From contig JANWIA010000022.1 of NCBI GenBank assembly GCA_025450105.1, positions 5,630 to 69,629 of the forward strand: DNA of 64,000 bases, in the 5' to 3' direction. The notes under the pieces were generated by a model that searched no databases, was not told where the DNA came from, and saw only the letters and a program-made list of their open reading frames with translations. This DNA is from Candidatus Doudnabacteria bacterium. Its GTDB lineage: Bacteria; Patescibacteriota; Doudnabacteria; UBA920; O2-02-FULL-48-8. A program made the position numbers and the translations under genes. Below, piece after piece: positions 36,188 to 57,723 of this stretch (position 1 is the stretch's first letter; the number at the start of each line of letters is the position of its first letter).

Positions 36188-36703
36188 CTATTTCTTCTTC
36201 CTTATCAAGCGGGCGACAATAAGTCCGGTGATGAGACCGATGACCAAATAAACAACTGACGGCAAAGATCCGCCACTTGGAGCATTATCGCCAATCACTG
36301 GCGCGGTAACATTCAAGGTCAAATCAGTTTGGACAATTGTTTTTTGATCCTTCTGGTAATTGACTGTCAACAAATATTCGCCGGCTCTTGGAAAAGTATA
36401 GGTCATAATTGCGGCATTCAAACCTTGTCTCGGTAAAGTTGCAATAAACACTGGTTCCGAATCATGCTCAAACTTAACCCAGACGACATCGAAATCAATT
36501 AGCTTTTTGTCGGTCGCGCCAAAAACAGAAAAATCAAAACGATTTGAATCCCCTAAACTCAAAATCGGATTAGTGTAACCAATGTCGACTAAGTAGTTGT
36601 CGACAATCTTTTCGACATAACCGCCGCTGCCATGTGCACCAACAAAAAGAGGCATGGCTAGCAAACCCAAGATTAAGATGATTTTTGATTTCCAATGCTT
36701 CAT
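36188..36703 (-). CDS. Exported hypothetical protein with signal peptide and C-terminal TM anchor
   Basis: N-terminal signal-like hydrophobic segment, C-terminal TM plus RKKK. Confidence 0.4.
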   Translation of the reverse strand: MKHWKSKIILILGLLAMPLFVGAHGSGGYVEKIVDNYLVDIGYTNPILSLGDSNRFDFSVFGATDKKLIDFDVVWVKFEHDSEPVFIATLPRQGLNAAIMTYTFPRAGEYLLTVNYQKDQKTIVQTDLTLNVTAPVIGDNAPSGGSLPSVVYLVIGLITGLIVARLIRKKK

Positions 36704-36807
36704 AAAGATAATTAATTGTACCGCATTTTATGCCGAACCACCAACTTTGCAAAAACTTGCAGTTTGTGGTGTAAATTTAACTAGCGTGTTAAAATAGAGC
36801 CAAGCAA

Positions 36808-37749
36808 ATGACTAATAAAGAAACTAAAACAAAAGTTATTACAGTTGCCATCTTCGCGGCAATTTTGGTCGCTTTTTTTGCCCTGCTAATCGGTGACAAC
36901 AACGTCGCGTTGCTCAACCCAAAAGGAATTATCGCCGCCCAACAAAAATCTCTGATAATTACTTTAATTGGCCTAATGCTGATCATTGTTATTCCCGTTC
37001 TGACGGCAACATTTTTTATTTCTTGGAAATACCGCGAAGGTAATCCTGCCTCTGAATACACTCCCAACAAAGTTAACACGCTCACCCAACAACTGACATT
37101 ATGGAGCTTCCCTGTCGTCATCATTTTTTTTATGAGCATAATCATGTGGCAAAGCACTCATAAATTGGATCCGTTCAAACCAATTGCTTCTGCCAACAAA
37201 CCAATAACAATCCAAGTCGTGGCTTTACAATGGAAATGGTTATTTATTTATCCGGAACAGCAAATTGCCACAATAAACTTTGTCCAATTCCCCGAGCAGA
37301 CCCCAATTAACTTTGAACTGACCGCCGACGCGCCAATGAATTCGTTTTGGATTCCGCAATTGGGCGGGCAAATGTATTCCATGCCTGGCATGAAAACGCA
37401 TTTGAATTTGATGGCAACTGAACAAGGGGAATTTGCAGGATCTGCCGCGGAAATTAGCGGCAGCGGATTTGCCGGCATGAAATTTGTTGCCAAATCCAGT
37501 TCGCAACAAGATTTTGATCAATGGATAAAATTTGTAAAAAATTTCAATTCTGCGTTGGACATGGAAGCTTATGAACAAATATCCGAACCTTCGGAATACG
37601 ACCCCGTTGCCTACTATTCCGTGGCCGAAGAAAAGTTATTCGATAATGTTATGATGCAATTCATGCCGCAAGAATCTCACATGCAAACACACAGTATGCT
37701 CGACACGATTCCCGTTCCCCTCCCTCCAAAACCAATTAACACACTATAA
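36808..37749 (+). CDS. cyoA: Cytochrome bo3 ubiquinol oxidase subunit II
   Basis: FWIPQLGGQMYSMPGMKTHLNL block typical of quinol-oxidase subunit II lacking CuA ligands. Confidence 0.85.
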   Translation: MTNKETKTKVITVAIFAAILVAFFALLIGDNNVALLNPKGIIAAQQKSLIITLIGLMLIIVIPVLTATFFISWKYREGNPASEYTPNKVNTLTQQLTLWSFPVVIIFFMSIIMWQSTHKLDPFKPIASANKPITIQVVALQWKWLFIYPEQQIATINFVQFPEQTPINFELTADAPMNSFWIPQLGGQMYSMPGMKTHLNLMATEQGEFAGSAAEISGSGFAGMKFVAKSSSQQDFDQWIKFVKNFNSALDMEAYEQISEPSEYDPVAYYSVAEEKLFDNVMMQFMPQESHMQTHSMLDTIPVPLPPKPINTL

Positions 37750-39711
37750 ATGTTTGGCAAACTCACATTAGCAGCGCTCCCACACGAATGGTTCACGATT
37801 GGCGGCACATTGTTTATGGCCGCATCGGGAATCGTGCTTTTTGCCGCGTTGACCTACTACAAAAAATGGGGCTGGTTGTGGAATGACTGGCTGACTTCCA
37901 CTGACCCAAAAAAAATCGGGATCATGTACGTCATTGTTGCGGCCGCGATGTTTGCGCGCGGCGCCTTGGATGCGGCCATCATCTGGTTTCATCAAGCAAT
38001 TTCGGTTGGACCAAATTCAGGATTGATGGACGCCGATCATTTTCAGCAAATCTTTACCGCCCATGGCGACATCATGATCTTTTTCGTGACCATGGGATTT
38101 TTGTTTGGTTTGCTTAACTACATTGTTCCGCTGCAAATTGGCGCGCGCGACGTGGCCTTCCCGTTCCTGAACACTTTAGGATTCTGGTTGTTTGTTGCCG
38201 GAGCGATTCTCATTAATTTATTCTTTGTCCTTGGCGGGGATTTTGCGGCCACGGGTTGGCTGGCGCAGGCGCCACTGTCGGAACTGGAATTCAGCCCCGG
38301 GGTCGGCGTGGATTATTGGATCTGGAGTTTGCAGGTTTCCGGACTCGGTACGCTGTTGGGCGGCATTAATTTATTAGTGACGATTTTAAAAATGCGCGCG
38401 CCAGGCATGACGCTCATGAAAATGCCGTTGTTTGTTTGGACCACGCTCTGCAGTATGGTCTTAGTCACGACAATTTTCCCAATCCTGACCATGACTATCT
38501 TCCTATTGTTCGTGGACCGGTATTTTGGCATGCACTTTTTTACTACCACCGGCGGCGGCAATCCAATGATGTACACCAACTTAATTTGGATGTGGGGCCA
38601 TCCGGAAGTTTATGTTTTAATTTTACCGGCGTTTGGGATTTATTCGGAAGTTGTCCAAACCTTTAGCCAAAAACGGTTAGCTGGTTACGTGTCGCTGGTT
38701 TGCGGCGCAATCGGCATTTCCATATTGGCGCTTGTCGTTTGGTTGCATCACTTCTTTACCATGGGCGCCGATTCCAATGTCAACGCCTTCTTTGGATTGA
38801 TGACTATGCTCATTGCTATTCCGACTGGTGTGCAAATTTTGAGCTGGCTAGCCACAATGTATAAAGGCAGGATCAAATTCACAACGCCAATGAAATGGTT
38901 TTTGGGATTCGTCAGCACTTTTACTTTTGGCGGCATGGCCGGACTGTTGTTAGCCGCGCCTCCTGCCGATTTCCAACTACATAACAGTTTATTTTTGGTC
39001 GCACACGTCCACACCATGATTGTCGGCGGCGCCCTGTTTGGAATTTTTGCCGGAATTATTTATTGGTTTCCAAAAGTTACCGGCTTCAAGCTTAACGAAA
39101 AAATCGGCAACTACGCATTTTGGTTTTGGCTGGTCGGGTTTTTCCTGTCCTTTACCCCACTTTATATTTTGGGGTTGATGGGCGCCACACGCCGCTTGGA
39201 CCACTATGAAGCATCAACCGGTTGGCAACCGCTGTTTATTGTTTCGGCCATCGGTTTGGTTGTCATTGCCATTGGTTTTGGTTTGCAGCTGTTGCAAATT
39301 TTCGTCAGCTACCTGCAGCGCAAACAAAATGCCGACACCACGGGCGATCCATGGAACGGCCGAACACTGGAATGGATGACCCAGTCCCCGCCGCCGGTTT
39401 ATAATTTTGCGATTGTGCCTCATGTAGAATCCCGCGAACCGCTGTGGGACTTGAAGCAGGCAGGAGGCAGAAGGCAAGAGACAGGACAATACGAAGATAT
39501 TCATATGCCAAAAAATACACCGCTGGGAATTTATACTGCCGGTTTTGCTTTCTTAATTGGTTTTGCTTTTATTTGGCACATTACTTGGTTGGTCATCGTC
39601 GGGTTAATCGGCGCCGTTGCCTGCATGATTTGGCGAACATTTGATGATGAGACGGAATATAAAATTAAAGCCTCAGAACTGGCAAAAATGGAATCAAAAC
39701 GAAACCTATGA
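37750..39711 (+). CDS. cyoB: Cytochrome bo3 ubiquinol oxidase subunit I (heme-copper oxidase)
   Basis: WMWGHPEVYVLILPAFG and His ligand pattern; 653 aa; start overlaps cyoA stop. Confidence 0.95.
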   Translation: MFGKLTLAALPHEWFTIGGTLFMAASGIVLFAALTYYKKWGWLWNDWLTSTDPKKIGIMYVIVAAAMFARGALDAAIIWFHQAISVGPNSGLMDADHFQQIFTAHGDIMIFFVTMGFLFGLLNYIVPLQIGARDVAFPFLNTLGFWLFVAGAILINLFFVLGGDFAATGWLAQAPLSELEFSPGVGVDYWIWSLQVSGLGTLLGGINLLVTILKMRAPGMTLMKMPLFVWTTLCSMVLVTTIFPILTMTIFLLFVDRYFGMHFFTTTGGGNPMMYTNLIWMWGHPEVYVLILPAFGIYSEVVQTFSQKRLAGYVSLVCGAIGISILALVVWLHHFFTMGADSNVNAFFGLMTMLIAIPTGVQILSWLATMYKGRIKFTTPMKWFLGFVSTFTFGGMAGLLLAAPPADFQLHNSLFLVAHVHTMIVGGALFGIFAGIIYWFPKVTGFKLNEKIGNYAFWFWLVGFFLSFTPLYILGLMGATRRLDHYEASTGWQPLFIVSAIGLVVIAIGFGLQLLQIFVSYLQRKQNADTTGDPWNGRTLEWMTQSPPPVYNFAIVPHVESREPLWDLKQAGGRRQETGQYEDIHMPKNTPLGIYTAGFAFLIGFAFIWHITWLVIVGLIGAVACMIWRTFDDETEYKIKASELAKMESKRNL

Positions 39712-40289
39712 TGCACACCGATGCCGGCCATAAAAATGTTTTAGGATTTTGGATCTATTTAATGACCGATCTTTTGATGTTCGCGGTTTTGTTTGCAACC
39801 TACGCCGTGTTGCGCACTAGCACGTTTGGCGGCCCGACCGAAAATGAATTGTTCAGCCTGCCCTTTGTTTTGATCGAAACCATGATCCTTCTAACCAGTA
39901 GTTTTACTGTCGGCGTGGCAATCCTAAACGTTGATCGCGAAAAAAATGCCATAAGGCACGTTGCAACTTGGCTCATCATTACTTTCGTGCTTGGTGTTTC
40001 GTTCTTGGCCATGGAACTCGACGAATTCGGAAAACTTATTGCCGACGGCCACAACTGGCAATCGAGCGCTTTCTTGTCGTCATTCTTTTCCTTGGTTGGC
40101 ACCCATGGCTTGCACATTGCCAGCGGTTTGCTCTGGATCCTGATCATGCTGGTTAAAATGTGGCAGCGCGGAGAAATCAACCACAACACCGCCCGGCAAA
40201 TTACTTTACTAAGCTTATTCTGGCACTTCCTGGATGTCGTTTGGATCTTCATTTTTAGTTTTGTTTATCTAATGGGAGTAGGCTTATGA
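39708..40289 (+). CDS. cyoC: Cytochrome bo3 ubiquinol oxidase subunit III
   Basis: 5-TM subunit III similarity; ATGA overlap with cyoB. Confidence 0.85.
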   Translation: MMHTDAGHKNVLGFWIYLMTDLLMFAVLFATYAVLRTSTFGGPTENELFSLPFVLIETMILLTSSFTVGVAILNVDREKNAIRHVATWLIITFVLGVSFLAMELDEFGKLIADGHNWQSSAFLSSFFSLVGTHGLHIASGLLWILIMLVKMWQRGEINHNTARQITLLSLFWHFLDVVWIFIFSFVYLMGVGL

Positions 40290-40630
40290 ACCACGCCAAA
40301 TTAAAATCCTATATTTTTGGATTCCTATCTTCAGTCATCCTTACCTTGCTAGCCTATTCTTTGGTCAATTTAAACTTGGCCAGTGGGCCGCAATTGACGA
40401 TTGGCATTATGAGCCTGGCCTTTATTCAAGCGTTAGTCCAGTTAGTTTTCTTTTTGCATCTGGGCCGCGAGCAGAGTCCAAAATGGAATCTGGCCGTATT
40501 CCTTTCCACCGCGTCCATGATTTTTTTGGTCATTTTTGCCTCGATTTGGATTATGAACAGTTTAAATTACCGCCACGCCCATCCGGATGACGTCACAAAT
40601 TATATTCTGGAACAAGAAGGAATCCATTAA
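40286..40630 (+). CDS. cyoD: Cytochrome bo3 ubiquinol oxidase subunit IV
   Basis: 3-TM, 114 aa, position in operon; ATGA overlap. Confidence 0.7.
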   Translation: MNHAKLKSYIFGFLSSVILTLLAYSLVNLNLASGPQLTIGIMSLAFIQALVQLVFFLHLGREQSPKWNLAVFLSTASMIFLVIFASIWIMNSLNYRHAHPDDVTNYILEQEGIH

Positions 40631-41484
40631 TGGTCCGCGTCTACTATAATTTGGCCAAGCCTGGTCTTGTTTACGGCAACTGCCTCACCGGCATGGCCGG
40701 TTTTTTATTAGCCTCTCAGGCTCATGTCAATTTTCTGCTCTTGCTCGAAACCATTGCAGGACTTGGATTGGTCATGGCTTCGGCCTGTGTCCTCAATAAT
40801 GTTTATGACGCGGATATTGATTCCAAAATGGAGCGAACCAAAACCCGGGCCACGGTCACCGGTGAAATTTCCAAATTCAACGCATCGATTTACGGAATTT
40901 TGCTCGGCCTTGCCGGCTACTCATTACTTTATTTCTATACCAATCTTTTGACGGTTGGCGTTGCCGCAGTCGGGACCATTGTTTACCTGCTATTTTACTC
41001 TCCGTTCAAACGCCGTTCGACAATGGCCACGATTGTCGGTGGCCTTTCCGGCGCCACCCCGCCGGTAATCGGGTACTGTGCCGTTACTAATAATTTTGAT
41101 TTAGGTGCGCTGCTACTTTTCCTCATTTTATTTTTCTGGCAACTGCCGCACTTTTATGCTATCTCCATTTACCGGCTTGGTGATTATACCGCTGCGGCCG
41201 TGCCCGTCATGTCTGTAAAAAAAGGAATTCGAGTTACCAAATTTAATATTCTTGTTTGTGTGATTGGATTTATTGCCTCTACTATATCGCTCAAACTCTA
41301 CGGTTACATTGGTCTGGTTTCAATAATCATTGTAGGGATTGTCAGTTTGAATTGGCTCCGTCTTGCCTTAAAGGGTTTCAGCGCAGAAAATGATGTAAAG
41401 TGGGCAAGGAAAATGTTTTTCTTTTCCTTGATTGTCCTGCTAACTCTTTCGGCCATGCTTTCTCTAGACGCGCTACTGATTTAA
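40630..41484 (+). CDS. cyoE: Protoheme IX farnesyltransferase (heme O synthase), UbiA family
   Basis: UbiA-type Asp-rich motifs (NNVYDADID); 284 aa; overlaps cyoD stop. Confidence 0.85.
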   Translation: MVRVYYNLAKPGLVYGNCLTGMAGFLLASQAHVNFLLLLETIAGLGLVMASACVLNNVYDADIDSKMERTKTRATVTGEISKFNASIYGILLGLAGYSLLYFYTNLLTVGVAAVGTIVYLLFYSPFKRRSTMATIVGGLSGATPPVIGYCAVTNNFDLGALLLFLILFFWQLPHFYAISIYRLGDYTAAAVPVMSVKKGIRVTKFNILVCVIGFIASTISLKLYGYIGLVSIIIVGIVSLNWLRLALKGFSAENDVKWARKMFFFSLIVLLTLSAMLSLDALLI

Positions 41485-41502: not shown

Positions 41503-41751
41503 ATGTTACTAACTATCCACATCATCACTGCCACAATCAATTTGATCCTTGCTGGGGTTTTGTACTTTAGGCCATCGGAATCAAAGCTATACACGACCTA
41601 TTTCATGACTGCGGCCATGTTAGCCACAGGCACTGCCCTGGTTTTTGCCAAACCTGTCCACATCACCCAAACCTGCCTTACCGGCCTGGCTTACTTAAGC
41701 CTGATCACTTATAATGTTGTTTCCGCCAGAAAACGAATGGCTCAACAATAA
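41503..41751 (+). CDS. Small two- to three-TM membrane protein immediately downstream of cyoE
   Basis: ORF, hydrophobic profile. Confidence 0.35.
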   Translation: MLLTIHIITATINLILAGVLYFRPSESKLYTTYFMTAAMLATGTALVFAKPVHITQTCLTGLAYLSLITYNVVSARKRMAQQ

Positions 41752-41947
41752 TAATCAAGAAACAAATCCCAAAGGACAAATAAGCTCCAACCTTCAATAC
41801 CCAATCTCTAATTGGGTATTTTATATTGATAATTGAGTATTATTTGAGATTTGATTATTGTTTTTTGGTGATTATTTATCCACAGCACTTTTTCTTGACG
41901 ATTAAATAAGAATTTAATATCTTAATTTCTTATTTAAAAATAAACCA

Positions 41948-43447: not shown

Positions 43448-46400
43448 CTAAACCTTTAAGTCCTGGCTGACCCAGCCGTTGCCTGTGGTAAGTTCTTTTT
43501 GAAGGTGGCGAGGTTGTGGCACATCCCCGGATGTAGATGCATGCAGGTAGTACTTCCCTTTTGGAACCATCATAAAATATCGGCCGCGGAAATCCGACAC
43601 CGCAAAGGTCACGCGGTTGTTGGCGAGATCAGTCAAATAGATTGGGGCCAGGGCCATTGGCAAACCGGTGGCGCTGTTTCTGATGATGCCAAACGGTTTT
43701 GGCCGGATCTTAAGCAGGCGAGCAATGGCAATGAACACAAACAGGACGATCAATCCAAAACTGATGACATCCGGCTGGGCAATATAGCCGGCGACCGTAA
43801 GCGGAAACGCGGCCCAAAATGAGAAATTCGAAAAAGTGATCAAGGCTTTCCTAAACAAAGCCCGGGGCGAAGTTCTGGTTTTGGCAATTGGATCCATCGG
43901 TAAATCTAAATTGGAGCTTTGCTGTGGATTGACCGTAATCATGCCGCCCAAATATATGTCCCCGAATGGCATGTTGGCCATATCGGCAAAAGTTTTTTGG
44001 GTTGGGAATTTATATTTTGGGTGCTCGGCAAAAAATTGAATTTTCTGCTCCGATCCGGCCAGGCCTCGCGGCGAAATCAAAAATGCATACCGCCCATCCG
44101 GGCCGGCAATGGTTGATTCCAAAATTTTTAATCTTTCATTTAAGACATTAACATGGGCATGTGGAATCGGCTGCAAAGTTTTGGAATCAAAAACCACGCC
44201 CCAAGGGTTTCGTTTACGGCGCAACCCCAGCGCTTCCATCAAAGCCAAAATCCAATACTTAAAATAATTAACGCTGTTCAAACCGCTAAGCAAATCAATC
44301 AAAGCAGAACCGGTGGTAATCAACGGCGTGATCAAAAGCAAAAACGTTATAAACCTCAAACTCATCGTCCCACCCGGTACCATCTCCAAAATTTCCTGGG
44401 TCGATTCCTGGACTTGGTCCGGGACAAAACCTTGGGTGAAATCAAACGCCCCGCCAGAACCTTCATCATCTGTATCAACACTGCCCCCGCCATTTGGTCG
44501 GTCGATAGGCGGAGGTGGCGGAGTAATACTTGGCGTTTCCGGATCAGATGGTCCTGGAGGAGTCACCGGTGGCGGTGGCGGCGGATCTGGTAATGGTTCG
44601 TTGGTTTCGGTATCGAATCGTGATGGGCCGCCGGAAGAAGAGTTGTCCAACAAGACAGCCTGTTCCTCGTCAGTGTCATTTGCATAAACAAAAACGGTAT
44701 AAGTCCCTTCAACTGCTCCCGGCGGAATCACAACGGAAAATCCATGATCATCCGGATATCCAGTTACGTCATTAACATCCGGTCTTGGGTCATCGGCGAC
44801 AATAACAATCGGATCAGAGTCAGGAGAAGTCGGGTCTTCAAAATAAATTTCAATCGTTACCGGTGCATCCGGATCGTTTGGATCCACGGCCCAACCAGTG
44901 ATGACCGTGCCGCCATTTGTGCCATTCTCGTCAACGTGACCAATCGGATCGTCATTGCCTGGAGGGATAATTACTGGATCGTGGTCACAAATTACTGGCG
45001 GGGAAACATATAGGCTGTTGATGAACGCCCGGGTTGGCGTGACCAAATTACCGCTTTTGCCATTATTACCGATTAGATCAGCGTAGGCAGTTTGGAAACG
45101 GCGGACTGCATCACGGGTGTTGTCGCCGTAATACTCAACCTCGTGGCCCGGTGAACCAGCGCCACTTAGCGCGACCATGAATCCGTTATCGTTCAAAAAC
45201 CTCTGCAAATATACAACCTGCGGATGTGTTTGCCGATGCGAAATGTTTTCGGAAAATGAAATTTCCGGCGGACGCAACTGTATCGGCGGATACGACACAC
45301 AATCCGGTTCTGCAGGTGGAGGCGGCGGGATCACAACCGGCGGCGGCGGAGGTGGTGGTGGAGTTTCCGCTGCGGTCAGGACAATTGTATCCGACACAAC
45401 TTGCGACGAAGAATTTATATTTTTATAAAAACGAACATAGACAGTATAAGTTCCCGGCTCACAGGTAGATGTGAACTCACAAATGTCCCAGGATATAGTT
45501 TCCTCATAATCCATTTGCTCGTATGGTGACAACAATGAATGATCTGAGATCCTGATGTAGTTGGCATCCGGTCCGCCGGACAAAGTTAAAGTTACATTCC
45601 TGGAATTGGTTGTTGTGTCGCCAGAATTTATCGTCACCCTAAAGCCACCGTTAGGCTCCTGCATACCATTATTATTGTTTCCTCCCCCGCCCCCGTCTGC
45701 TGCGGCAGAAGTTGTGGCGGAATCAGTAACCGCTGAAGTTTCTGTTCCGTCGCCATTGCGGGCTTTCACGGAAAAATTATAAAGCGTGGATGGTGACAAC
45801 GAAGTAGACATCCACGATACACCGTCCGCGACCCAACCCGAATCTGTTGATGCTGTTGTGTTAGCGGCAAAAAATGCCGTACCGGCCGGGTTACTGTTGA
45901 CGTTCCAAGTTGCCGTAATTTGAGAGGATGAATCAACAGTTAATATTAAGGCGCTTGGCGGATTGGCCAAAGTATATGCGCTGCTATTGGCAGAGTTGGC
46001 AGTATTGCCTGCTAAATCTGTGACTGTTACAAAGAAAGTGTACTGGACATTAACGCTTAATCCATTGCTGGCCCACGACGTACCGGCTTGCGCTCCAGAA
46101 CTGGTCGCCGCGGTGGAGTTTTGAATATTATATGGTGCTGCTGCCAAACCAGATAAAGCATCCGAAGCACCGGCAACCGTTGCGGTTATCGATGATGTTG
46201 TAATTGTCCCTGTAGAAACTGTTCCTGCAGTTGGTGCGGCAGTATCAACCTTAAAGGCAATCGCGCCGCTATTGGCGGTCGAATAAGAAGATTCGGCAGC
46301 CGAATTATCAATGGCTTTTACTTGCCAATAGTAGCCGGAGCTGTCGGCCAAGGTTTGCCCGCCTGATCCTGTAGTATACGATCCACCGCCAGCCGCTTGG

Positions 46401-48985
46401 CCAACAGTAAACGAAAAACTTCCCTGCGCCGCCACGGCAGAAGTATAATCAACCACGACTGACGAAAAATCACTCGTGTCGTCGATTTGAATCCTAAAGC
46501 CGACAGTATCCGAACCATCTGGATCACTTAAACTGAAAGTCAGAGTTGGAGTGTTGTCATTCCCCCATGATCCATTGACGTATGAAGCAGGACCCAAAGA
46601 TCCCGGCGCGTCCGGATTAGTGTTACAACCGATAAAGGTCCAAGCGTTATTGGAAGTGTTAGTCGAACTTTTGGCAGTGATGGTGCCAGCCTGGTCTGTG
46701 GCTGCCACGTCTGTGATGGTTGTGGTCCCGGATCCGGACCAGGTGCGCTGCGTTGGGCTGGAAGAAGATGAAATTGCAATCGCATCGGCGCCGCCGCAAC
46801 CAACGCCGGAACCGTCCAAAGTAATTGTGCCGGAATTGCCGACGTCGCCAGCCAAAGAAATATCCCCCGTCCCGGTATTGCTCCAGGTGCCGCTCGATCC
46901 AATTGTGGTCGCACCTCCAGTGGTCAAATTAAAAGTTGCGCCCTGGTCAAAAGTTCCGGATGCGACTTCAAATGTCCCGCCCAAAACCAAAGCTGTGGCC
47001 TGCGTTAAACTGCTGCCCACGGTTTTATTGACCTTGAGCTTGGCCGAAAATGTTCCGGCCGTTTGGGTGATGGTCTTGTTGCTGCCGCCGGTAAATTCAA
47101 ATGTTAAATTGGACCCGCCCATGGTATTGGTTGAAGCCATGGAAAAATTTCCACCGATAAACCATGTCTTGGCTGAACCAGGGTTAGTGACCGTTCCCAA
47201 AGTTCTGGTGAAATCTCCGGTCACAGTGCAGTCAGCGGCCAAGCCAAGCTCTCCGGCCAAGTTGGTTTTGTTCAATACGACCGAACCCAGTGTGGCTGTA
47301 CCGCAAGTCAATGATGTATCTTCTGTGACTCCATCAAACGTAAAGGCAATTCCATTTGGCAGCAGGTTGCCAGTGTTATCCAGGTTGTTGCGAACACTCA
47401 TAGTAGTAATCCCGGCCGGGAACGACCCGCCGGACAATGTCATGCTTCCATTCATGTCTATTGTCGTGCCGGACATTGTCACAACCGATCCGGTGTTCAT
47501 TGTATAATTCGCATTTATGGTCCAGGTTCCAGTACCGACAGTTATGGTGCCATTGTTGGTAATGCTGGTCGAGCTAGACGTTGGACTGTTCCCAAGCGGC
47601 AAAGTACAGGTCGAACCGATGGTTAATCCCGTAGATGATAAAGACTGGCTAATTGCAGCAGATGCAAAAGTAACCGTACCGCAAGACAACGTACTCGATG
47701 TGCCAGCGCCAGCATCCAGGGTTAATGCAATTCCGTTCGGTAAAAGATTTGCGGTGTTTGTTAGACTCCCGGTTAAACTTAATGTTGCCAGTCCGGCCGG
47801 AAACACCCCGTCAGTTAAAGTCAGGCTACCATTTACATCCATGACTGTTCCACCCATGGTTAAGGTCGATCCGGTATTTTGGGTATAGCTCGCGTTTACT
47901 GTCCAAGTGCCAGTGCCGACGTTGATTGTGCCGTTATTTACAATTGAAAGCGAACTCGATGTCGGGCTGTTTCCAAGTGGCAAAGTACAGTTCGAACCAA
48001 CTGTTAATCCAGTCGCAGACAAACTTTGGCTGATGACCACTGATGCAAAGGTTGCGGTGCCGCAAGAAAGCGTGCTGGTTGCACCTGCGCCACTGTCGAT
48101 GGTCAGAGCAATGTCGTTTGGCAAAAGATTGGCCGTGTTAGTCAAGCTTCCAGTCAGGGTCATTGTCGTGATTCCGGCTGGGAATGATCCGCCGGATAAG
48201 GTCAAACTACCGTTCATATCCAAAGTTGTGCCGCCCATGGTCAAGGTCGATCCACCATTTTGCGTGTAACCCCCGGTAATTGTAAAAGTTCCAGTGCCGA
48301 CGTTGATAGTTCCATTGTTGGTAATAAACCCTTGAGCCGTGGCGCTGTTTCCGAGTGGCAGAGTACAAGCCGAACCGATAGTCGTGGTCGCAACTGTTAG
48401 TGATCCGGTGATGGTCACGGCATTAAACGTCGCGCTATTACAGGCTATGGATTGGTTAACGCCATTGCCGGTATCAAAAAGGACAGTTCCACCATTTGCA
48501 TTGAAGGTTGGACTGCCGCTGATTGTAAAATTATTGTTGATGGAAAAAGTTCCTGAGGTTGAAGTAAAAATTCCACCCGTAAGACTGAAGGTTCCATTAA
48601 GGTCGATGGTTTGTGTAGCGCCGGTAAACGTTCCTGTTGATTGTGAGTAACCAGAAGAACCAATCGTCAAGCTCCGCGCCTGTGTAATTGTCCCGCTATA
48701 ACCAGTACTTATTGTTAATCCGCCGACCGAACCAGCAAACGACCCATCGATGCTGGCATTTGTTGTGGATGTGCTATCAAAAAATGCAATGTCTGAACCA
48801 GTGGGACAAGTATCCGCGCTCCAATTAGCACAAGTACTCCACAGGCCGTCAGTACTGTCGTTGTCCCATGTTCTTGTTGCTGCCCGCGCAGGCCGATCTA
48901 TAATCAAAACGATCACGACCAAAAGAAAAAGCGCTACAGCTAGCGTAATTTTTTTAAAAATTGCTTTTGAGTGGGCTGCTTTCAC
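43448..48985 (-). CDS. Giant (about 1845 aa) cell-surface protein: N-terminal TM/signal, Gly/Thr-rich roughly 130-aa tandem beta-repeats, poly-Pro linkers, peptidoglycan-binding-like domain, C-terminal polytopic membrane anchor with Ig-like modules
   Basis: Repeats TGTFTITGGYTQNGGSTLTMGGT...; PG_binding-like YLQRFLNDNGF...DAVRRFQ; C-terminal hydrophobic helices. Confidence 0.75.
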   Translation of the reverse strand: MKAAHSKAIFKKITLAVALFLLVVIVLIIDRPARAATRTWDNDSTDGLWSTCANWSADTCPTGSDIAFFDSTSTTNASIDGSFAGSVGGLTISTGYSGTITQARSLTIGSSGYSQSTGTFTGATQTIDLNGTFSLTGGIFTSTSGTFSINNNFTISGSPTFNANGGTVLFDTGNGVNQSIACNSATFNAVTITGSLTVATTTIGSACTLPLGNSATAQGFITNNGTINVGTGTFTITGGYTQNGGSTLTMGGTTLDMNGSLTLSGGSFPAGITTMTLTGSLTNTANLLPNDIALTIDSGAGATSTLSCGTATFASVVISQSLSATGLTVGSNCTLPLGNSPTSSSLSIVNNGTINVGTGTWTVNASYTQNTGSTLTMGGTVMDVNGSLTLTDGVFPAGLATLSLTGSLTNTANLLPNGIALTLDAGAGTSSTLSCGTVTFASAAISQSLSSTGLTIGSTCTLPLGNSPTSSSTSITNNGTITVGTGTWTINANYTMNTGSVVTMSGTTIDMNGSMTLSGGSFPAGITTMSVRNNLDNTGNLLPNGIAFTFDGVTEDTSLTCGTATLGSVVLNKTNLAGELGLAADCTVTGDFTRTLGTVTNPGSAKTWFIGGNFSMASTNTMGGSNLTFEFTGGSNKTITQTAGTFSAKLKVNKTVGSSLTQATALVLGGTFEVASGTFDQGATFNLTTGGATTIGSSGTWSNTGTGDISLAGDVGNSGTITLDGSGVGCGGADAIAISSSSSPTQRTWSGSGTTTITDVAATDQAGTITAKSSTNTSNNAWTFIGCNTNPDAPGSLGPASYVNGSWGNDNTPTLTFSLSDPDGSDTVGFRIQIDDTSDFSSVVVDYTSAVAAQGSFSFTVGQAAGGGSYTTGSGGQTLADSSGYYWQVKAIDNSAAESSYSTANSGAIAFKVDTAAPTAGTVSTGTITTSSITATVAGASDALSGLAAAPYNIQNSTAATSSGAQAGTSWASNGLSVNVQYTFFVTVTDLAGNTANSANSSAYTLANPPSALILTVDSSSQITATWNVNSNPAGTAFFAANTTASTDSGWVADGVSWMSTSLSPSTLYNFSVKARNGDGTETSAVTDSATTSAAADGGGGGNNNNGMQEPNGGFRVTINSGDTTTNSRNVTLTLSGGPDANYIRISDHSLLSPYEQMDYEETISWDICEFTSTCEPGTYTVYVRFYKNINSSSQVVSDTIVLTAAETPPPPPPPPVVIPPPPPAEPDCVSYPPIQLRPPEISFSENISHRQTHPQVVYLQRFLNDNGFMVALSGAGSPGHEVEYYGDNTRDAVRRFQTAYADLIGNNGKSGNLVTPTRAFINSLYVSPPVICDHDPVIIPPGNDDPIGHVDENGTNGGTVITGWAVDPNDPDAPVTIEIYFEDPTSPDSDPIVIVADDPRPDVNDVTGYPDDHGFSVVIPPGAVEGTYTVFVYANDTDEEQAVLLDNSSSGGPSRFDTETNEPLPDPPPPPPVTPPGPSDPETPSITPPPPPIDRPNGGGSVDTDDEGSGGAFDFTQGFVPDQVQESTQEILEMVPGGTMSLRFITFLLLITPLITTGSALIDLLSGLNSVNYFKYWILALMEALGLRRKRNPWGVVFDSKTLQPIPHAHVNVLNERLKILESTIAGPDGRYAFLISPRGLAGSEQKIQFFAEHPKYKFPTQKTFADMANMPFGDIYLGGMITVNPQQSSNLDLPMDPIAKTRTSPRALFRKALITFSNFSFWAAFPLTVAGYIAQPDVISFGLIVLFVFIAIARLLKIRPKPFGIIRNSATGLPMALAPIYLTDLANNRVTFAVSDFRGRYFMMVPKGKYYLHASTSGDVPQPRHLQKELTTGNGWVSQDLKV
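47130..48650. repeat. Diverged tandem coding repeats (about 390-nt period, 3.5 or more copies, roughly 75% identity) inside the giant surface-protein gene
   Basis: Antisense ORF translations at 47517 and 47907 are near-identical; direct nucleotide comparison of consecutive 390-nt blocks. Confidence 0.7.
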
Positions 48986-52040: not shown

Positions 52041-52904
52041 ATGAACCAAAACGATCAAATTTACGAGGAAGCGTTTGCGAGAAACAAAGGACTGATTAGT
52101 GATGAGGACCAGCAAAAATTAAAAAATGCCCGCGTGGCAATTGCCGGACTGGGTGCGGTTGGAGGCAGTTATGTCACAACCATGGCCCGTTTGGGCGTTG
52201 GTAAAATAAATATTGCGGATCTGGATATTTTTGAACGGGTTAATCGCAACCGCCAGGCCGGCGCTTTTGAATCGACTATTGGCCAGCCAAAAACATCAGT
52301 TATGGAAAAAATGGCCAAGGACATTTATCCGGGAATGGATGTAAGGATTTTTGATAAAGGAATTACACCGGAGAATATTGATGAATTTTTGGACGGTGTG
52401 GATGTCGTTTTAGACGGAATAGATTTTTTTCAATTTGATGCCCGACAAATGCTTTATCGAAAAGCCCGCGAAAGAAACCTTGCCGTGGTTGGTTCCGCCC
52501 CGCTGGGATTTGGGTCGAGCACAATAACCTTTGGCCCATCAGGCATTAGCTTCGATGAGTATTTTGATATCACTGATAAGCTGACGCCGGAAGAAAAACT
52601 TTTAAAATTCGGAATGGGCATGGGTCCTTCCCTATTGCAGCGTAGTTATTACCCTGTTAAAGTCGTAAATTTCAAGGACCACGCCGCACCATCGTCAATT
52701 CTTTCAATTGTTCTTGCCGCCAACCTCACCGGCACGCAAGCATTTAAAATTTTAACCGGCAAAGAATACACAACCGCACCAACTACAATCCATTTTGACC
52801 CTTATGTCCAACAATTACGAACTGTTGTACTAAAAAAAGGAAACGGAAGCTTTATTCAACGCCTAAAATTCTGGTACGTTAAGAAATATTTACTTTCCAA
52901 ATAA
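52041..52904 (+). CDS. ThiF/MoeB/HesA family E1-like adenylyltransferase
   Basis: Rossmann motif AGLGAVGGSYVTTMARLGVGKINIADLD. Confidence 0.75.
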   Translation: MNQNDQIYEEAFARNKGLISDEDQQKLKNARVAIAGLGAVGGSYVTTMARLGVGKINIADLDIFERVNRNRQAGAFESTIGQPKTSVMEKMAKDIYPGMDVRIFDKGITPENIDEFLDGVDVVLDGIDFFQFDARQMLYRKARERNLAVVGSAPLGFGSSTITFGPSGISFDEYFDITDKLTPEEKLLKFGMGMGPSLLQRSYYPVKVVNFKDHAAPSSILSIVLAANLTGTQAFKILTGKEYTTAPTTIHFDPYVQQLRTVVLKKGNGSFIQRLKFWYVKKYLLSK

Positions 52905-52948
52905 GAAAGATTGACGCTAACTGCCACAAATGATATATTCAACGGCAG

Positions 52949-53668
52949 TTGGAAGGAGGGTATAGAAACATCATGCAAAAAACAGCAACCTGGACATACG
53001 CAATCACCTGCTACCTCTATCGTGGACTTTCAGTCCTTATAGGAAGGGCTCCAAGCATTCGCGGCAGAGAGAACATCCCTGCGGGCGGTTGCATTGTCGT
53101 TGCCAACCACCGCAGTATCATGGATCCATGGTGCATCTCCTGGTGTTTCACCATGAGCAACGGCATCAAGTGGATGGCAAAAATGGAATCGGTTGACCCC
53201 CGCGACTTTCAAAGACCGGGAGCCGGCTGGATCCGAAACTTCTTTCTGCTGATTGCAGGATGGTTTTCCGCCCAGATCGTCCGCGGATGTGACGTACTGC
53301 TCGTTGATCGCGAAGGTAAAGACCAGGCCCTTAATCTCAAATCGCTTGCTAGAGCCTCCAGGCTCTTGGAAAAGGGTGGGATTGTGGGGATCTTTCCCGA
53401 AGGCGGGATAGACAAAAAGAAGGCCGAAGGGTTCTTCGAAGGGTTTATCTCGTTAGCCAAACGAACTGAAATGCCGATCGTCCCGATCTACATCGACGGG
53501 AAACGAATCGTTATTGGCAAGCCAATCACTTTCGACCTCAAGTGCCACGAACTCAACAACCGGGCACGACTGGCTGCCGATGTCATGAGCCTCATCGATT
53601 CACTCCGAACCGAAGACAACGAGCGCATCAAGCAACTCGTCGCCTCTTTTGCTGGCGCCGGGTATTAA
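52949..53668 (+). CDS. PlsC-family lysophospholipid/lyso-lipid acyltransferase
   Basis: HxxxxD motif (NHRSIMD) and FPEGG block. Confidence 0.75.
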   Translation: MEGGYRNIMQKTATWTYAITCYLYRGLSVLIGRAPSIRGRENIPAGGCIVVANHRSIMDPWCISWCFTMSNGIKWMAKMESVDPRDFQRPGAGWIRNFFLLIAGWFSAQIVRGCDVLLVDREGKDQALNLKSLARASRLLEKGGIVGIFPEGGIDKKKAEGFFEGFISLAKRTEMPIVPIYIDGKRIVIGKPITFDLKCHELNNRARLAADVMSLIDSLRTEDNERIKQLVASFAGAGY

Positions 53669-53718
53669 CAAATCAGCGCAGTCCACTGTAACAAGGACTG
53701 CGCTGTATTCTTTCTACT

Positions 53719-54294
53719 ATGTATATTTTAAAATCTTCGACAATCAATAACCTTGATAAGCCTCAACAACATACGGCAGGACAAGGACTCGCTAAGTTAG
53801 CATGTGCCACACTTGCCCAAACGAAACCATCGGAAGTGCAACTTTTTTATACAACGACTGGCCAACCTCATGCCAAAGTTAAAGACCGGACTTATTCGAT
53901 TTCTATAGCTCATACCAAAAACTTAGTTGCTGCGTTAGCCGCAACATACTCGAAACGAATTGGACTGGATGTAGAATATCCCCGCTCGTTCTCAAATAAA
54001 ATCCTTGCAGCCTTTTTAAACCAACCAGAAATAAAAATATTACGAGAATTATTTCCAAAAAACAAAAAATTGCGCGAAACCCTTGCCTGGTCCTGTAAAG
54101 AAGCATATCTTAAAGCAGCAGGCTTAGGTTTAAGGCAGCATCCTCTAAGTCTCAACATACAAATAAAAAACAAGACAAAATCTAAAATTACCGGAAAAAT
54201 TTTGGATACAAAAAAAGGTCGGGAAGCATTTATCCAGGCCAAATTCACTTCTAAACAAATTATTGCAATTTCATATTATGACACTACCAAATAA
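53719..54294 (+). CDS. 4-prime-phosphopantetheinyl transferase superfamily protein
   Basis: GLDVEY (GxDxE) and WSCKEAYLKAAG (W..KEA..K) motifs. Confidence 0.65.
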   Translation: MYILKSSTINNLDKPQQHTAGQGLAKLACATLAQTKPSEVQLFYTTTGQPHAKVKDRTYSISIAHTKNLVAALAATYSKRIGLDVEYPRSFSNKILAAFLNQPEIKILRELFPKNKKLRETLAWSCKEAYLKAAGLGLRQHPLSLNIQIKNKTKSKITGKILDTKKGREAFIQAKFTSKQIIAISYYDTTK

Positions 54295-54535
54295 CCCCAA
54301 GGATTTTGTTTACAATTCAATTCACAAGGTTACCGGCAAACCAGTCGATTCGATCCAGCCTAACGACCTTCTGACCAGTTTAGTCACCGATTCCATTCAA
54401 CTGTTCGAATTAATTCTGGAACTGGAAAACGCTTTTGCAATTGAACCGGATTACGATGAACTGGTAAAAATTCAAACCGTTCAGCAGGCTGTAGAATTCG
54501 TGGAAAAAATCTACGTAACTCAACCTACTCAATAA
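54278..54535 (+). CDS. Acyl carrier protein-like (start at MTLPNN)
   Basis: Phosphopantetheine attachment-like LVTDSIQLFELILELENAF (DSI/DSL serine). Confidence 0.6.
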   Translation: MTLPNNPKDFVYNSIHKVTGKPVDSIQPNDLLTSLVTDSIQLFELILELENAFAIEPDYDELVKIQTVQQAVEFVEKIYVTQPTQ

Positions 54536-55574
54536 ATTTTGGCGACTTGCGAACAGATGGCGGGCGGATTTCCGTTTTAGCATATCCAAGACGGACAAAA
54601 AATGTTATGACTTCGTCCTTTACCCCGAGTAGTTTGTAAACATTGCCGGTCACACGGTTGATTATAGACGCCTCCCAATTTGTAATACTTTCCGGAGAAT
54701 TTCCTCGTAATCGAGAATACAAAAATAGCATGCTCGACATTGGTTGCAGAGAAATATCATAGTCGGTTGCAGCTAACCAGACCGACTGCAAGGCCCGTCC
54801 GGTTTCGACATAACTTTCCGCCCAATTATTATGGATGACAAAATAGCCCAACGCCGGGCTTTTTTCGTATATGTGTCGGCGCATCAGGTAACTTGTATAT
54901 TCCAATCCGAACAAACGGAAAAATTTTGTGATCTTCCAACTCTTTAATATCCGCAATAAAAACTTCATCATCGGATTTCTGGTGATCGACCTAATGTGCA
55001 TTCCGTCTTGGGTCCGTTTGAATTCGTCATCGGTCCACCGAATATTGTCGTAAAAATACTTGTGGAGTTCCTGGTTGTCCAAAATCATTTTATCCCCGAC
55101 CGCCAGAAGATCGACAAGTTTTTTAACAAGGCTTCGGCTCTGGATCATTTCGAACCGGACAAAAGGAGGGCGCTGTCCCGCTTCTTGTATTGCCTGGTTC
55201 GCCCGTGCATCAATCCGGTGCTTCAAAAACGGCATGCGGTCAGTAAAACGTTTTTTGATTGATCGGATTGATTCCGGATCAGTCTTCGGCGCATCAGTAA
55301 ATTCAATTCGCGAAATGTGCTTGTAGTCTTTGATATCGGGAAAAACCTTAACCTTCGATGCATAACCTTCCACTGCCGCCAGACGGACTATGTTTTCGAT
55401 CAGTGCCCCGTGGCTGATATAGGTCGCATGCTGCTTAAAATCATACAAGGATGGAGTGGAAGAATCGTAGATGTCCACATAATTTTCCCCTAAACGAAAA
55501 GTCCACGGTTGTTGGTTATCTCCCGAAGGCGCGAAGACGGCATCTGCTAAAATTTTTCTGAAAATTTCCTGCAT
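54525..55574 (-). CDS. Nitroreductase-superfamily flavoprotein (two-lobed, SagB-like length)
   Basis: AVFAPSGDNQQPW N-terminal nitroreductase signature. Confidence 0.5.
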   Translation of the reverse strand: MQEIFRKILADAVFAPSGDNQQPWTFRLGENYVDIYDSSTPSLYDFKQHATYISHGALIENIVRLAAVEGYASKVKVFPDIKDYKHISRIEFTDAPKTDPESIRSIKKRFTDRMPFLKHRIDARANQAIQEAGQRPPFVRFEMIQSRSLVKKLVDLLAVGDKMILDNQELHKYFYDNIRWTDDEFKRTQDGMHIRSITRNPMMKFLLRILKSWKITKFFRLFGLEYTSYLMRRHIYEKSPALGYFVIHNNWAESYVETGRALQSVWLAATDYDISLQPMSSMLFLYSRLRGNSPESITNWEASIINRVTGNVYKLLGVKDEVITFFVRLGYAKTEIRPPSVRKSPKFIE

Positions 55575-55626
55575 TGAGTAGGTGGGATTAGTGGTATAAT
55601 TATAACATTATTTTTAAATTGCTCTT

Positions 55627-56244
55627 ATGTACCGATATAGCGTGGCTAAATCACCAACAGACAAACAAGGAGTTTTTGCCCTGATCCGAAAAATTTATGG
55701 AATTGAAGGATATTTAACCGGCAACGGGAGTGCTTTTGATAAATATTTGTTGTTGGAAACTTCCATGGTCTTTCGCGGACTGGTAAACAACAAATTATTC
55801 GGGACAATTTCCGTGGTGACAGATTTAGGACACGGTTTGCCCATGGATATTCTTTATAAAAAGGAACTTGAGGCCTTGCGTCAGCAAGGTAAACTCTTAG
55901 CAGAGGTCACGCAGTTTGCTGTTGACCATGACATCATAAAGCAGGAAGACCTTTTTTTTAATTCCCTAAAGCAACTGACTACCGACCTTCCATTGTTTAA
56001 ACTGGTTTTGGATTTTGCAGCGTTTAAAAATCTTGATTTTTTGTGCATAACAGTTAACCCCCGGCACGCCAAATTTTACCAATCCTTGGGGTTTGTTCAA
56101 TTTGGCGAACTTAAATATTATGAGTCCGTTAACAATGCACCGGCACTATTGTATGTTCTGGATTTGCATGAATTCAAAAATAAAAAATTGCCCGGAATTT
56201 TCAAAACATTGTCCGCGCAGCCTGACTTTAGTTTATTTACTTAA
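55627..56244 (+). CDS. Putative acyl-ACP-dependent N-acyltransferase (OlsB/FeeM-like, GNAT-related fold), paralog 1
   Basis: Roughly 60% identical to the 57734-58354 product; length and context; assignment is inferred. Confidence 0.4.
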   Translation: MYRYSVAKSPTDKQGVFALIRKIYGIEGYLTGNGSAFDKYLLLETSMVFRGLVNNKLFGTISVVTDLGHGLPMDILYKKELEALRQQGKLLAEVTQFAVDHDIIKQEDLFFNSLKQLTTDLPLFKLVLDFAAFKNLDFLCITVNPRHAKFYQSLGFVQFGELKYYESVNNAPALLYVLDLHEFKNKKLPGIFKTLSAQPDFSLFT

Positions 56245-56932
56245 GCTCGCTAAAAACGTGCTTGATGTGCTCGTAACAAACCTCGTAACCAGCATCATTT
56301 GGATGCGAGAGGTCGGTGAAAAAATACTTTTTCCTGTCGACAAGCAAAATGTTCGGGTCCTGATCGATCAACAAACAACCGTTACTGGCCGCGACCTTTT
56401 CAAAAACTTCATGGACGCGGGCGGCGCGATAGTTTAAAAAATCCCGTTCCAAAAAGGAGTATAAGGGCATATCACCGGTTTTGCTTGGAACCCAAAAAAC
56501 AATTTGTTTCGATACTGGCTTGAGGTACTCAACTAATTCCTCAAGATTTTTTTTGATCTTTTTCAAACTGGAAAAAGTTACGATATCAATTCCCCCAACC
56601 ATCAAGACCGCCAAATCATAGTGACCTAAATGCTGTTGTTTAAGGTGTTTAATTAACCCCCCAATGTTCAACCGGCTCACAGAATGATTTGTAATATCCG
56701 CAGTTGGCATGTCTCGGCCTAAAATTCCGACCAGGTTCCTTGTCGGGTCGGTAGCGCCAGTGCCGACTAAAAAACTATCGCCGGCAAATAAAATATGGCA
56801 ACTCGGATTTTCTGGATGCTGGGAATAAGGTACAAGCGTTTTGCCCATTAATTTTTTTGGCGAGGCGTAAAAGACAATTCGACTGACTTCGAATAGTACC
56901 AGGCCTGCCAAAATTAGCAAAAAATAAATCAT
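56237..56932 (-). CDS. SGNH/GDSL hydrolase with N-terminal TM, paralog 1
   Basis: GDS block (HILFAGDSFLVGTGA) and DxxH (HPNDAGYE). Confidence 0.65.
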   Translation of the reverse strand: MIYFLLILAGLVLFEVSRIVFYASPKKLMGKTLVPYSQHPENPSCHILFAGDSFLVGTGATDPTRNLVGILGRDMPTADITNHSVSRLNIGGLIKHLKQQHLGHYDLAVLMVGGIDIVTFSSLKKIKKNLEELVEYLKPVSKQIVFWVPSKTGDMPLYSFLERDFLNYRAARVHEVFEKVAASNGCLLIDQDPNILLVDRKKYFFTDLSHPNDAGYEVCYEHIKHVFSELK

Positions 56933-56935
56933 AAT

Positions 56936-57661: not shown

Positions 57662-57680
57662 TTTTTGATTAAAATATTTC

Positions 57681-57723
57681 TTGCATCTATTCTTAATTCA
57701 CATTAGTATTATTATAACATTTA
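57681..57723 (+). promoter_or_regulatory. Candidate sigma70-like promoter (TTGCAT-17-TAGTAT) followed by TATTATAACATT motif; the same motif lies upstream of the paralog at 55595-55610
   Basis: Hexamers with 17-bp spacing, 25 nt upstream of ATG; motif shared between both paralog upstream regions. Confidence 0.35.

Follow-up and report, generated by a model that had tools for sequence, protein, structure and literature searches.

A clade of cyo-encoded quinol oxidases in candidate phyla radiation bacteria lacks the K-channel lysine

A 64-kb stretch of a Candidatus Doudnabacteria genome (64,000 nt of contig JANWIA010000022.1, hereafter the window, meaning the whole stretch analyzed) carries a complete cyoABCDE operon for a cytochrome bo3-type quinol oxidase in which the lysine that names the K-channel is replaced by glutamine. 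The enzyme belongs to a distinct and robust sequence clade, spread over several phyla of the candidate phyla radiation (CPR) and some Chlamydiae, in which the canonical K-pathway, as read from the alignments, is dismantled across two subunits. A cyo operon in a CPR genome is already known in kind; a large coherent A-family quinol oxidase clade without this lysine is apparently new. We favor, with a probability of roughly one half, a bo3-type (A1-family) quinol oxidase that would still reduce O2, using a rebuilt, lysine-free proton path. The operon genes and the two codons at issue are as follows.

36808-37749, plus strand: cyoA, quinol oxidase subunit II, 313 aa (TIGR01433, 282.5 bits; cut-off 266)
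37750-39711, plus strand: cyoB, catalytic subunit I, 653 aa (TIGR02843, 978.6 bits)
39708-40289, plus strand: cyoC, subunit III, 193 aa (TIGR02842, 246.7 bits; cut-off 223.75)
40286-40630, plus strand: cyoD, subunit IV, 114 aa (TIGR02847, 85.6 bits; cut-off 81.45)
40630-41484, plus strand: cyoE, heme O synthase, 284 aa (NF003348, 345 bits; cut-off 285)
41503-41751, plus strand: orfX, small membrane protein of 82 aa with about three transmembrane (TM) helices, conserved across CPR cyo operons
37090-37092, plus strand: CAA codon, Gln95 of CyoA, aligned to E89 of E. coli CyoA
38833-38835, plus strand: CAA codon, Gln362 of CyoB, aligned to E. coli K362

Curated NCBIfam equivalog models name all five Cyo proteins, and Pfam concurs. 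CyoA, CyoC, CyoD and CyoE score above their equivalog cut-offs; CyoB falls below its own (1020.35 bits), with TIGR02843 as its best-scoring family over the full length (E = 1e-294). CyoB is 57% identical to E. coli CyoB, covering E. coli residues 1-650 (E = 7e-249), and CyoA matches E. coli CyoA (1FFT_B) at E = 8e-80. CyoC, CyoD and CyoE are all present and the gene order is that of E. coli, so the original prediction of a complete, tightly coupled cyoABCDE at 36808-41484 is borne out by open reading frames (ORFs), junctions and family models.

Residues were mapped to E. coli numbering through the alignment of the window and E. coli CyoB. All six heme and CuB histidines (H105/H421, H419 and H284/H333/H334) are present and are invariant in 121 clade sequences; the pseudo-oxidase that their absence would have indicated is not what the window encodes. 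The cross-link tyrosine Y288 and E286 lie in the window motif WGHPEVY and are 100% conserved in the clade, and the D-channel is intact and invariant there (window D134/N123/N141 plus E286; E. coli D135, N124 and N142). Also intact is the quinol head-group site (window R70/D74/H97/Q100; E. coli R71, D75, H98 and Q101), which together with the TM0 pair H12/E13 (E. coli H13/E14) is 98-100% conserved in the clade; R481/R482 are present in the window enzyme, and their columns are invariant or nearly so in the 121 clade sequences.

The K-channel is where the enzyme departs from a canonical bo3 oxidase, which the original prediction had taken it to be. The A-type K-channel is recognized by a Lys-Thr-Ser-Tyr fingerprint (P. 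denitrificans K354, T351, S291 and Y280, equivalent to E. coli K362, T359, S299 and Y288; Sousa 2011). Window CyoB reads Q362-T359-S299-Y288, and the entrance glutamate of subunit II (E. coli E89, R. sphaeroides E101) is Gln95 in window CyoA, so that the proposed check of both channels found the D-channel whole and K362 and E89(II) each changed to glutamine. Near position 362 the alignment has no gaps, and invariant residues stand on either side (IPTGV[K/Q]IF.W). Other exchanges relative to E. coli are F311A, F368A, A319G, R80W, S159/L160 to F/F, and Y173Q. The enzyme is not of the B family, as its D-channel is complete, its K-path is Q-T-S-Y and not T-S-Y-Y, and its CyoB nests among Cyo-type sequences; nor is it a nitric oxide reductase (NOR), as Y288 and the three CuB histidines are kept. 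Window CyoA has no cysteine at all, hence no CuA and no lipobox Cys, and is therefore not a lipoprotein. The lipobox Cys (E. coli C25), invariant in proteobacterial CyoA, is missing from the CPR and Chlamydiae-type CyoA of all such loci compared.

Two kinds of cyo operon occur in CPR: a canonical one with K362 and E89 (57-62% identity to the window), found in many Saccharibacteria and a Kaiserbacteria metagenome-assembled genome (MAG), and a lysine-free one (63-80%) on contigs labeled Saccharibacteria, Paceibacterota, Doudnabacteria and Levyibacteriota. The 119 nearest non-self CyoB homologues carry Q (110 sequences), L (7) or K (2) at position 362; the lysine-free clade has Q there in 89% and L in 11%, against K in 100% of 144 canonical sequences. 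Collection scans with CyoB gave at least 160 loci, with about 15 lysine-free among the matches listed, counts that are no measure of clade size. The proposed CyoB phylogeny, a neighbor-joining (NJ) tree of 276 sequences, placed the window enzyme within a single clan of all 131 non-K sequences with one K-bearing member inside (bootstrap 73/100). When the 42 signature columns were removed, the clan together with two K-bearing sequences was recovered in 60/60 replicates. Within the Q background of the NJ tree, L362 arose several times. No description of the clade turned up in the literature searched; an earlier mention elsewhere (e.g., Murali, Hemp and Gennis 2022, BBA 1863:148907) is possible.

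Taxon labels for the clade are to be taken cautiously, because several short MAG contigs with CPR-type cyo or LeuRS (leucyl-tRNA synthetase) genes bear unrelated labels (L002, Bacillota; P0061, P0239 and P0261, Methylomirabilota; P0249, Binatia), which probably reflects binning contamination. The Chlamydiae-labeled subset combines S/A359 with Q362. Three loci (L007, L024 and L093) have S or A at 359 together with Q362, so that two of the four K-path fingerprint residues are altered; L007 and L024, labeled Chlamydiae and Parachlamydiales, retain E89(II), and L093, an unlabeled metagenome contig, has Ile there. An apparent gain of His at E. coli position 12 was rejected as an alignment shift of the conserved H13/E14 pair.

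The change at 362 is accompanied by changes in both subunits. A CyoA homologue search mixed canonical and lysine-free operons because CyoA diverges fast, and CyoA/CyoB pairs were read from the same contigs for these counts. E89(II) is kept in 138/138 K-bearing operons and 4/21 lysine-free ones among the loci listed and fetched, the remaining lysine-free operons having Q, A, G, T, V, I, D or K. Only 16 of the 179 canonical CyoB positions conserved at 97% or more are released in the clade, and seven of them (311, 312, 319, 323, 360, 362 and 368) were placed around the K-path, in the cytoplasmic halves of helices VII and VIII. Mean identity is nevertheless higher in the clade (72%, across phyla) than in the canonical set (64%). 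The lower path changes in a consistent direction, with F368 becoming A (41%) or S (24%) and F311 becoming A (35%) or S (18%); G312, A319 and G360 also lose strict conservation, the L362 subtype gains S360 (57%) and S312 (64%), and the lining changes are mostly to small or hydroxyl residues. The upper path is retained (T359 91-100%, S299 86-100%, Y288 100%). P0039 and P0056 are natural intermediates: they have the remainder of the clade signature and yet keep K362, F311, G312, A319 and F368. As predicted before these loci were fetched, the CyoA of both keeps E89.

A further set of switches, invariant or near-invariant in the clade and several of them in the quinone groove or beside the low-spin heme, is found at the following E. 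coli positions.

R80: W in 131/131 clade sequences
S159 and L160: F and F
I16: F or Y
V17: T
M79: I
A115: T
Y173: I, Q, V or L

The ubiquinone groove is formed by TM0, TM1 and TM3, with R71, D75 and H98 binding the head group (PMC13022660). Groove residues are altered in the clade while the head-group ligands are unaltered. In the alignment, the counterparts of R80 are bovine R38 and R. sphaeroides R52, the Arg beside the low-spin heme. Y173, equivalent to bovine Y129 and P. denitrificans Y167, is the conserved YPP-motif Tyr at the P-side water cluster. Together these changes suggest that the quinone fits differently and that the surroundings of the low-spin heme have changed. Because the intermediates P0039 and P0056 carry the groove and heme-b-side changes and keep K362, these changes precede the loss of the lysine. 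The order of events would then be quinone-groove and heme-b-side changes, followed by K362 to Q, and last the release or rebuilding of the lower path and the entrance Glu.

Under the reading we favor, the enzyme would still reduce O2 with quinol, and reductive-phase protons would reach T359, S299 and Y288 by a water- and hydroxyl-lined, lysine-free path entering through subunit I. Such a path would be opened by the Phe-to-Ala/Ser changes and would resemble the K-analogue of B-family oxidases. Quinol would probably be scavenged from a host, and heme either scavenged or, in some relatives, self-made. The role would be O2 consumption or redox balancing, with some generation of proton-motive force, in oxic soil; oxic soils are where cyo-bearing CPR come from (PMC8407418). 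We prefer a rebuilt path because the B and C families work with a lysine-free polar K-analogue (PMC3084760; PMC8780969), because the upper path is conserved, and because the lower-path changes are directional and coupled to K362 loss. The six operon ORFs are intact and, to judge from their sequences, under strong purifying selection, and cyoE and orfX are always co-encoded, which, with the CyoE-orfX fusion and the heme-gene cluster beside the L162 operon described below, points to commitment to a functional heme enzyme.

Several points weigh against this reading. The function of the clade is read from sequences, the trees are NJ trees, relatives of the window are overrepresented among the sequences sampled, and the channel lining was placed by sequence position and known helices rather than by measured distances. 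In E. coli, the K362Q, K362L and K362M enzymes are inactive. R. sphaeroides K362M likewise abolishes oxidase activity (PMC7601700). Leucine at 362 cannot relay a proton, nor is the entrance Glu preserved, so that plain loss would fit equally, and T359 and S299 might be kept for binding the hydroxyethylfarnesyl group of heme O and not for proton transfer. The type II NADH dehydrogenase (NDH-2), the ATP synthase, and the supply of heme and quinone lie beyond what the window shows.

Plain loss is the substance of the main alternative, a tentative one that is possible if doubtful, in which the K-pathway is truly disabled and the D-channel alone serves a very slow, low-flux O2 scavenger or a quinol:H2O2 peroxidase. 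Peroxidase function is conceivable without a K-channel because H2O2 enters at the peroxidase half of the cycle, where no K-channel protons are needed; in the account that PMC7601700 gives, citing Vygodina 1998, K-channel Lys mutants lose oxidase but keep full peroxidase activity, and peroxidase-phase protons come solely via the D-channel. The invariant D-channel, the repeated origin of L362, the unconstrained E89(II) position (Q, A, G, T, V, I, D or K) and the replacement of the P-side YPP Tyr (Y173) by I, Q, V or L all fit, and O2 scavenging or detoxification has been proposed in the literature for CPR cyo operons. Disablement leaves unexplained why upper K-path residues are still conserved and why the lower path moves toward small and hydroxyl residues instead of drifting among random hydrophobic ones. 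Strong purifying selection on a five-subunit pumping scaffold plus cyoE and orfX also seems costly for a crippled enzyme, and in vitro peroxidase turnover of heme-copper oxidases needs millimolar H2O2 (4 mM, PMC7601700). A bolder form, which we consider unlikely, would make the clade a natural K-pathway-free A-family enzyme taking all its protons via the D-channel, a counterpart of the K362M mutant acting mainly as a proton-pumping quinol:H2O2 peroxidase or very-low-flux O2 scavenger in catalase-poor episymbionts.

The groove changes raise the prospect, to our minds an improbable one, that the driving event was a switch of substrate or chemistry (for example another host-derived quinone with a changed potential of the low-spin heme, or the reduction of a different oxidant such as NO), with K-path loss secondary. 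The earliest clade changes lie in the TM0/TM1/TM3 groove assigned from PMC13022660 and beside the low-spin heme (R80W in 131/131, S159F, L160F, I16F/Y, V17T and M79I; R80 being bovine R38 and R. sphaeroides R52), the intermediates place them before K362 loss, and new functions in this superfamily have earlier been recognized from channel and active-site changes (PMC11214002). The active site, however, is of the O2-reductase type, with three CuB His, the cross-link Tyr and no NOR-type Glu ligands, and the head-group ligands R71, D75, H98 and Q101 are unchanged; a change of quinone would in any case be compatible with a rebuilt path and does not exclude it. Far less probable is an ordinary proteobacterial bo3 ubiquinol oxidase in which K362Q is neutral or an alignment or sequencing artifact, adding nothing to the published CPR cyo operons. 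Full-length similarity to E. coli bo3 (57%, E = 7e-249), equivalog matches for all five proteins, the E. coli operon order and the prior publication of cyo in CPR speak for it. It is contradicted by the ungapped alignment at 362 between invariant residues, a Q/L state common to 131 sequences of one clade that covaries with a second subunit and seven neighboring positions, the 100% K of the 144 canonical sequences in a channel defined by Lys-Thr-Ser-Tyr, and the CyoB score below the curated cut-off. Least credible of all is that an operon transferred long ago has lost its function and is decaying out of a shrinking genome. Two residues regarded as essential are gone, CPR genomes generally have no electron-transport chains (PMC7507113), and the window holds no partner respiratory genes; but the six ORFs are intact and tightly coupled, over 130 cluster representatives drawn from several phyla show no change in metal ligands or D-channel, mean identity is higher in the clade than in the canonical set (72% versus 64%), and the operon is syntenic with that of its nearest relative, with cyoE and orfX retained. 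A pseudogene was rejected on residue conservation across the clade.

The layout of the operon is compact. The original prediction placed overlapping start and stop codons at every junction, which holds for cyoB/cyoC and cyoC/cyoD (ATGA, 4-nt overlap each) and for cyoD/cyoE (TAATG, 1-nt overlap) but not for cyoA/cyoB, which abut without overlap (TAA|ATG, gap 0); an 18-nt gap separates cyoE from orfX. The ATG at 37750 is the true cyoB start, because CyoB aligns with E. coli CyoB from residue 1: its N-terminus MFGKLTLAALPHEW, bearing the TM0 H/E pair, aligns to E. coli residues 1-14. The public CyoB gene call (P0001, 631 aa) begins 22 codons late and misses part of the gene (37750-37815). Two candidate signals flank the genes.

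36685-36712, plus strand: putative promoter-like site, TTGATT-16-GATAAT, recognized only by its 9/12 match to the consensus, in the divergent intergenic region roughly 96 nt 5' of the cyoA ATG
41796-41820, plus strand: terminator-like hairpin with a 10-bp stem and T-rich tail, 45 nt past the orfX stop

This hairpin, the strongest terminator-like one 3' of the operon, comes after orfX and not after cyoE, and a hairpin scan of the operon's 3' side found no terminator-like site in the cyoE/orfX gap. On this predicted layout, cyoABCDE-orfX is a six-gene transcription unit.

The small membrane ORF at 41503-41751 was correctly predicted to trail the operon, although it is no incidental extra: it is a conserved sixth gene for which a CyoE fusion is known. 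Of the first 160 loci, 18 have a homologue of 80-95 aa directly 3' of cyoE, as do L161-L164; ORFs of the same size stand at this position in L165, L168 and L169, and orfX occurs in both canonical and lysine-free CPR operons. A library search gave 338 cluster representatives, nearly all standalone. H6, P24, G43, C58 and G61 are 98-100% conserved, and no Pfam or NCBIfam model matched. The fusion, P0371 (379 aa), is 50% identical to window CyoE over residues 4-280 and 44% to orfX over residues 291-371. Gene order and this fusion tie orfX to heme O synthase, making it a candidate to act alongside that enzyme, for example in heme O hand-off or as an assembly factor.

As originally predicted, neither quinone-biosynthesis nor NADH dehydrogenase genes were found in the 64-kb window, and the same is true of heme-biosynthesis genes; the sole faint quinone candidate is a generic S-adenosylmethionine (SAM) methyltransferase with a weak UbiE/COQ5 match at 58367-58990. 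One relative differs: on the 915-kb chromosome L162 (GCA_965231125.1, OZ246414.1), a coproporphyrin-type heme cluster at 14973-20357 adjoins a lysine-free cyoABCDE-orfX and encodes ferrochelatase (HemH), delta-aminolevulinic acid dehydratase (HemB), porphobilinogen deaminase (HemC), HEM4 (HemD), a Chlor_dismutase/HemQ-like protein and uroporphyrinogen decarboxylase (HemE). CPR are not generally known to make heme. On the Doudnabacteria chromosome L165, ThiF-like, nitroreductase-like and sensor kinase genes (5188-9138) stand immediately 5' of cyoA, whose start shares 4 nt with the kinase stop, and a methyltransferase gene comes after orfX (14264-14845). In the window, genes of these types lie 10-18 kb from the operon, in a cluster at 52041-60337.

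52041-52904: ThiF-like gene
54525-55574: Acg/Rv1355c-type nitroreductase
55627-56244 and 57734-58354: two paralogous proteins of about 205 aa, matching the N-terminal part of PRK14852
58367-58990: SAM methyltransferase (weak UbiE/COQ5 match)
59009-60337: histidine kinase

This ThiF/nitroreductase/kinase cluster may be the "associated oxidoreductase" of Nicolas 2021, and is a candidate quinone reductase or O2-responsive regulator. Separately, the locus of a K-bearing intermediate (L169) has a 423-aa FAD/NAD-binding oxidoreductase (DAO/NAD_binding_8; 8942-10213, minus strand) close downstream of cyo-orfX.

The rest of the window is housekeeping in character, with LeuRS, MetRS, GlyRS, polynucleotide phosphorylase (PNPase), Tgt, serine hydroxymethyltransferase, ParB, UppP, a XerC-like recombinase and an ABC exporter, at a GC content of about 0.44. 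The nearest named LeuRS proteins are from Candidatus Doudnabacteria (65-72%), with other Patescibacteria at about 61-63%, and for this reason we take the host to be a Doudnabacteria-like CPR bacterium rather than a member of Saccharibacteria; this accords with the reduced-genome host of the original prediction. The nearest relative, L161 (contig JAXOUH010011315.1 of GCA_034680565.1), shares 79% identity in LeuRS, 80% in CyoB, 92% in PNPase and 90% in the ABC exporter, so that CyoB identity tracks LeuRS identity. Its gene order is that of the window (PNPase-S15-XerC-ABC-171-aa homologue-cyoABCDE-orfX), with two glycan genes inserted. The composition of the operon is mildly deviant, with third-position GC (GC3) of 0.49-0.58 against a background of 0.455 +/- 0.035 and a relative synonymous codon usage (RSCU) distance of about 2.5 standard deviations. 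Since gene order is common to L161 and composition only mildly deviant, the operon is long resident. A recent transfer was considered and rejected on the L161 synteny and the only mild codon-usage deviation.

One neighbor lies divergently from cyoA.

36188-36703, minus strand: 171-aa protein with signal peptide, beta-sandwich and C-terminal TM anchor

Its signal peptide ends FVGA|HGSGG, which would leave an N-terminal His, and a Gly/Pro linker leads to a TM anchor ending in KKK. L161 keeps it at 58% identity in the same place beside the ABC exporter; it has no Pfam or NCBIfam match and no homologue in the 160 cyo loci listed, and its single-sequence AlphaFold model is of low confidence (pLDDT 57). 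Whether it is part of the cyo system is uncertain, and copper handling, perhaps as a chaperone, is a guess prompted by the N-terminal His. Elsewhere in the window, 43448-48985 (minus strand) encodes a giant predicted surface protein of 1845 aa with an N-terminal signal/TM segment, long Thr/Gly/Ser-rich repeats, each roughly 120 aa ("TFASVVISQSL...TINVGTGTWT"), segments resembling fibronectin, poly-Pro linkers and, at the C-terminus, several TM helices. A 758-aa PAS-GGDEF-EAL protein for cyclic-di-GMP turnover, present here in a CPR genome, is encoded at 644-2920 (minus strand) and adjoins malic enzyme (2976-4145) and MscL (4115-4603).

The K-channel lysine serves as a fingerprint of A-type enzymes in classification schemes, and its absence from a whole clade offers a natural experiment with its own controls: the correlated release of E89(II) and the lining, the repeated Q-to-L change and two K-bearing intermediates. 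This makes the role of the lysine testable, be it proton delivery, a dielectric role or gating of reduction. If the enzyme is truly a slow scavenger or peroxidase, equating "cyoB present" with "aerobic respiration" may over-interpret CPR metabolism. The orfX proteins, an uncharacterized small family with invariant His and Cys, add a candidate family for heme O hand-off or assembly.

Cyo operons in CPR have been published for Saccharibacteria (Kantor 2013, RAAC3; Starr 2018, "T. rhizospherense") and for soil Saccharibacteria, Parcubacteria and Doudnabacteria (Nicolas 2021). The original prediction's view of such operons as lateral acquisitions in Saccharibacteria thus agrees with the literature and extends to Parcubacteria and Doudnabacteria. 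These papers describe the E. coli gene order, no quinone biosynthesis, heme and quinone presumed to be scavenged and an origin by lateral transfer, and they also mention an extra hypothetical ORF and the "associated oxidoreductase". A supplementary figure of Starr et al. indicates K-channel residues, and their text notes only a "discrepancy in the functional residues" put down to evolutionary distance. Oxygen reductases were found in just 0.6% of Patescibacteria single-cell genomes, nested among other phyla (Beam 2020). The described soil-CPR operons match the window in operon, host group and ecological reading; they were treated as standard bo3, whereas the window belongs to the lysine-free clade.

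The closest characterized system is E. coli bo3, CyoABCD plus CyoE (PDB 1FFT, 6WTI, 7CUB, 8F68), with the same genes in the same order, a 57% identical CyoB and a CuA-less subunit II. Shared residues are the six His, Y288, E286, the D-channel, R71/D75/H98/Q101, the TM0 pair H13/E14 and R481/R482. The window differs in K362 to Q, E89(II) to Q, the altered lining and groove, the lack of a CyoA lipoprotein Cys and the extra orfX, and its host, as far as is known for CPR, makes no quinone. B-family oxidases such as T. thermophilus ba3, with a Thr/Ser/Tyr/water path to the cross-link Tyr and no lysine, provide a working analogy; they have no D-channel and keep the subunit-II entrance Glu, whereas the window enzyme has a full D-channel, has lost the Glu and is A1-type by phylogeny. 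R. sphaeroides K362M and P. denitrificans K354M, neutralized at the same position, are laboratory phenocopies of the natural state. Those mutants are single changes in a canonical background, oxidase-dead and peroxidase-active (PMC7601700), while the natural clade has co-adapted changes in lining, subunit II, quinone groove and heme-b side. B. subtilis aa3-600, QoxABCD (PDB 6KOB/6KOC), is a homologous four-subunit A-family quinol oxidase from a monoderm (subunit I, E = 3e-200). The window proteins score higher on Cyo than on Qox models, and cyoE is present with no heme A synthase. The quinol-site position is Q101-type in the window enzyme, where Qox bears a Glu.

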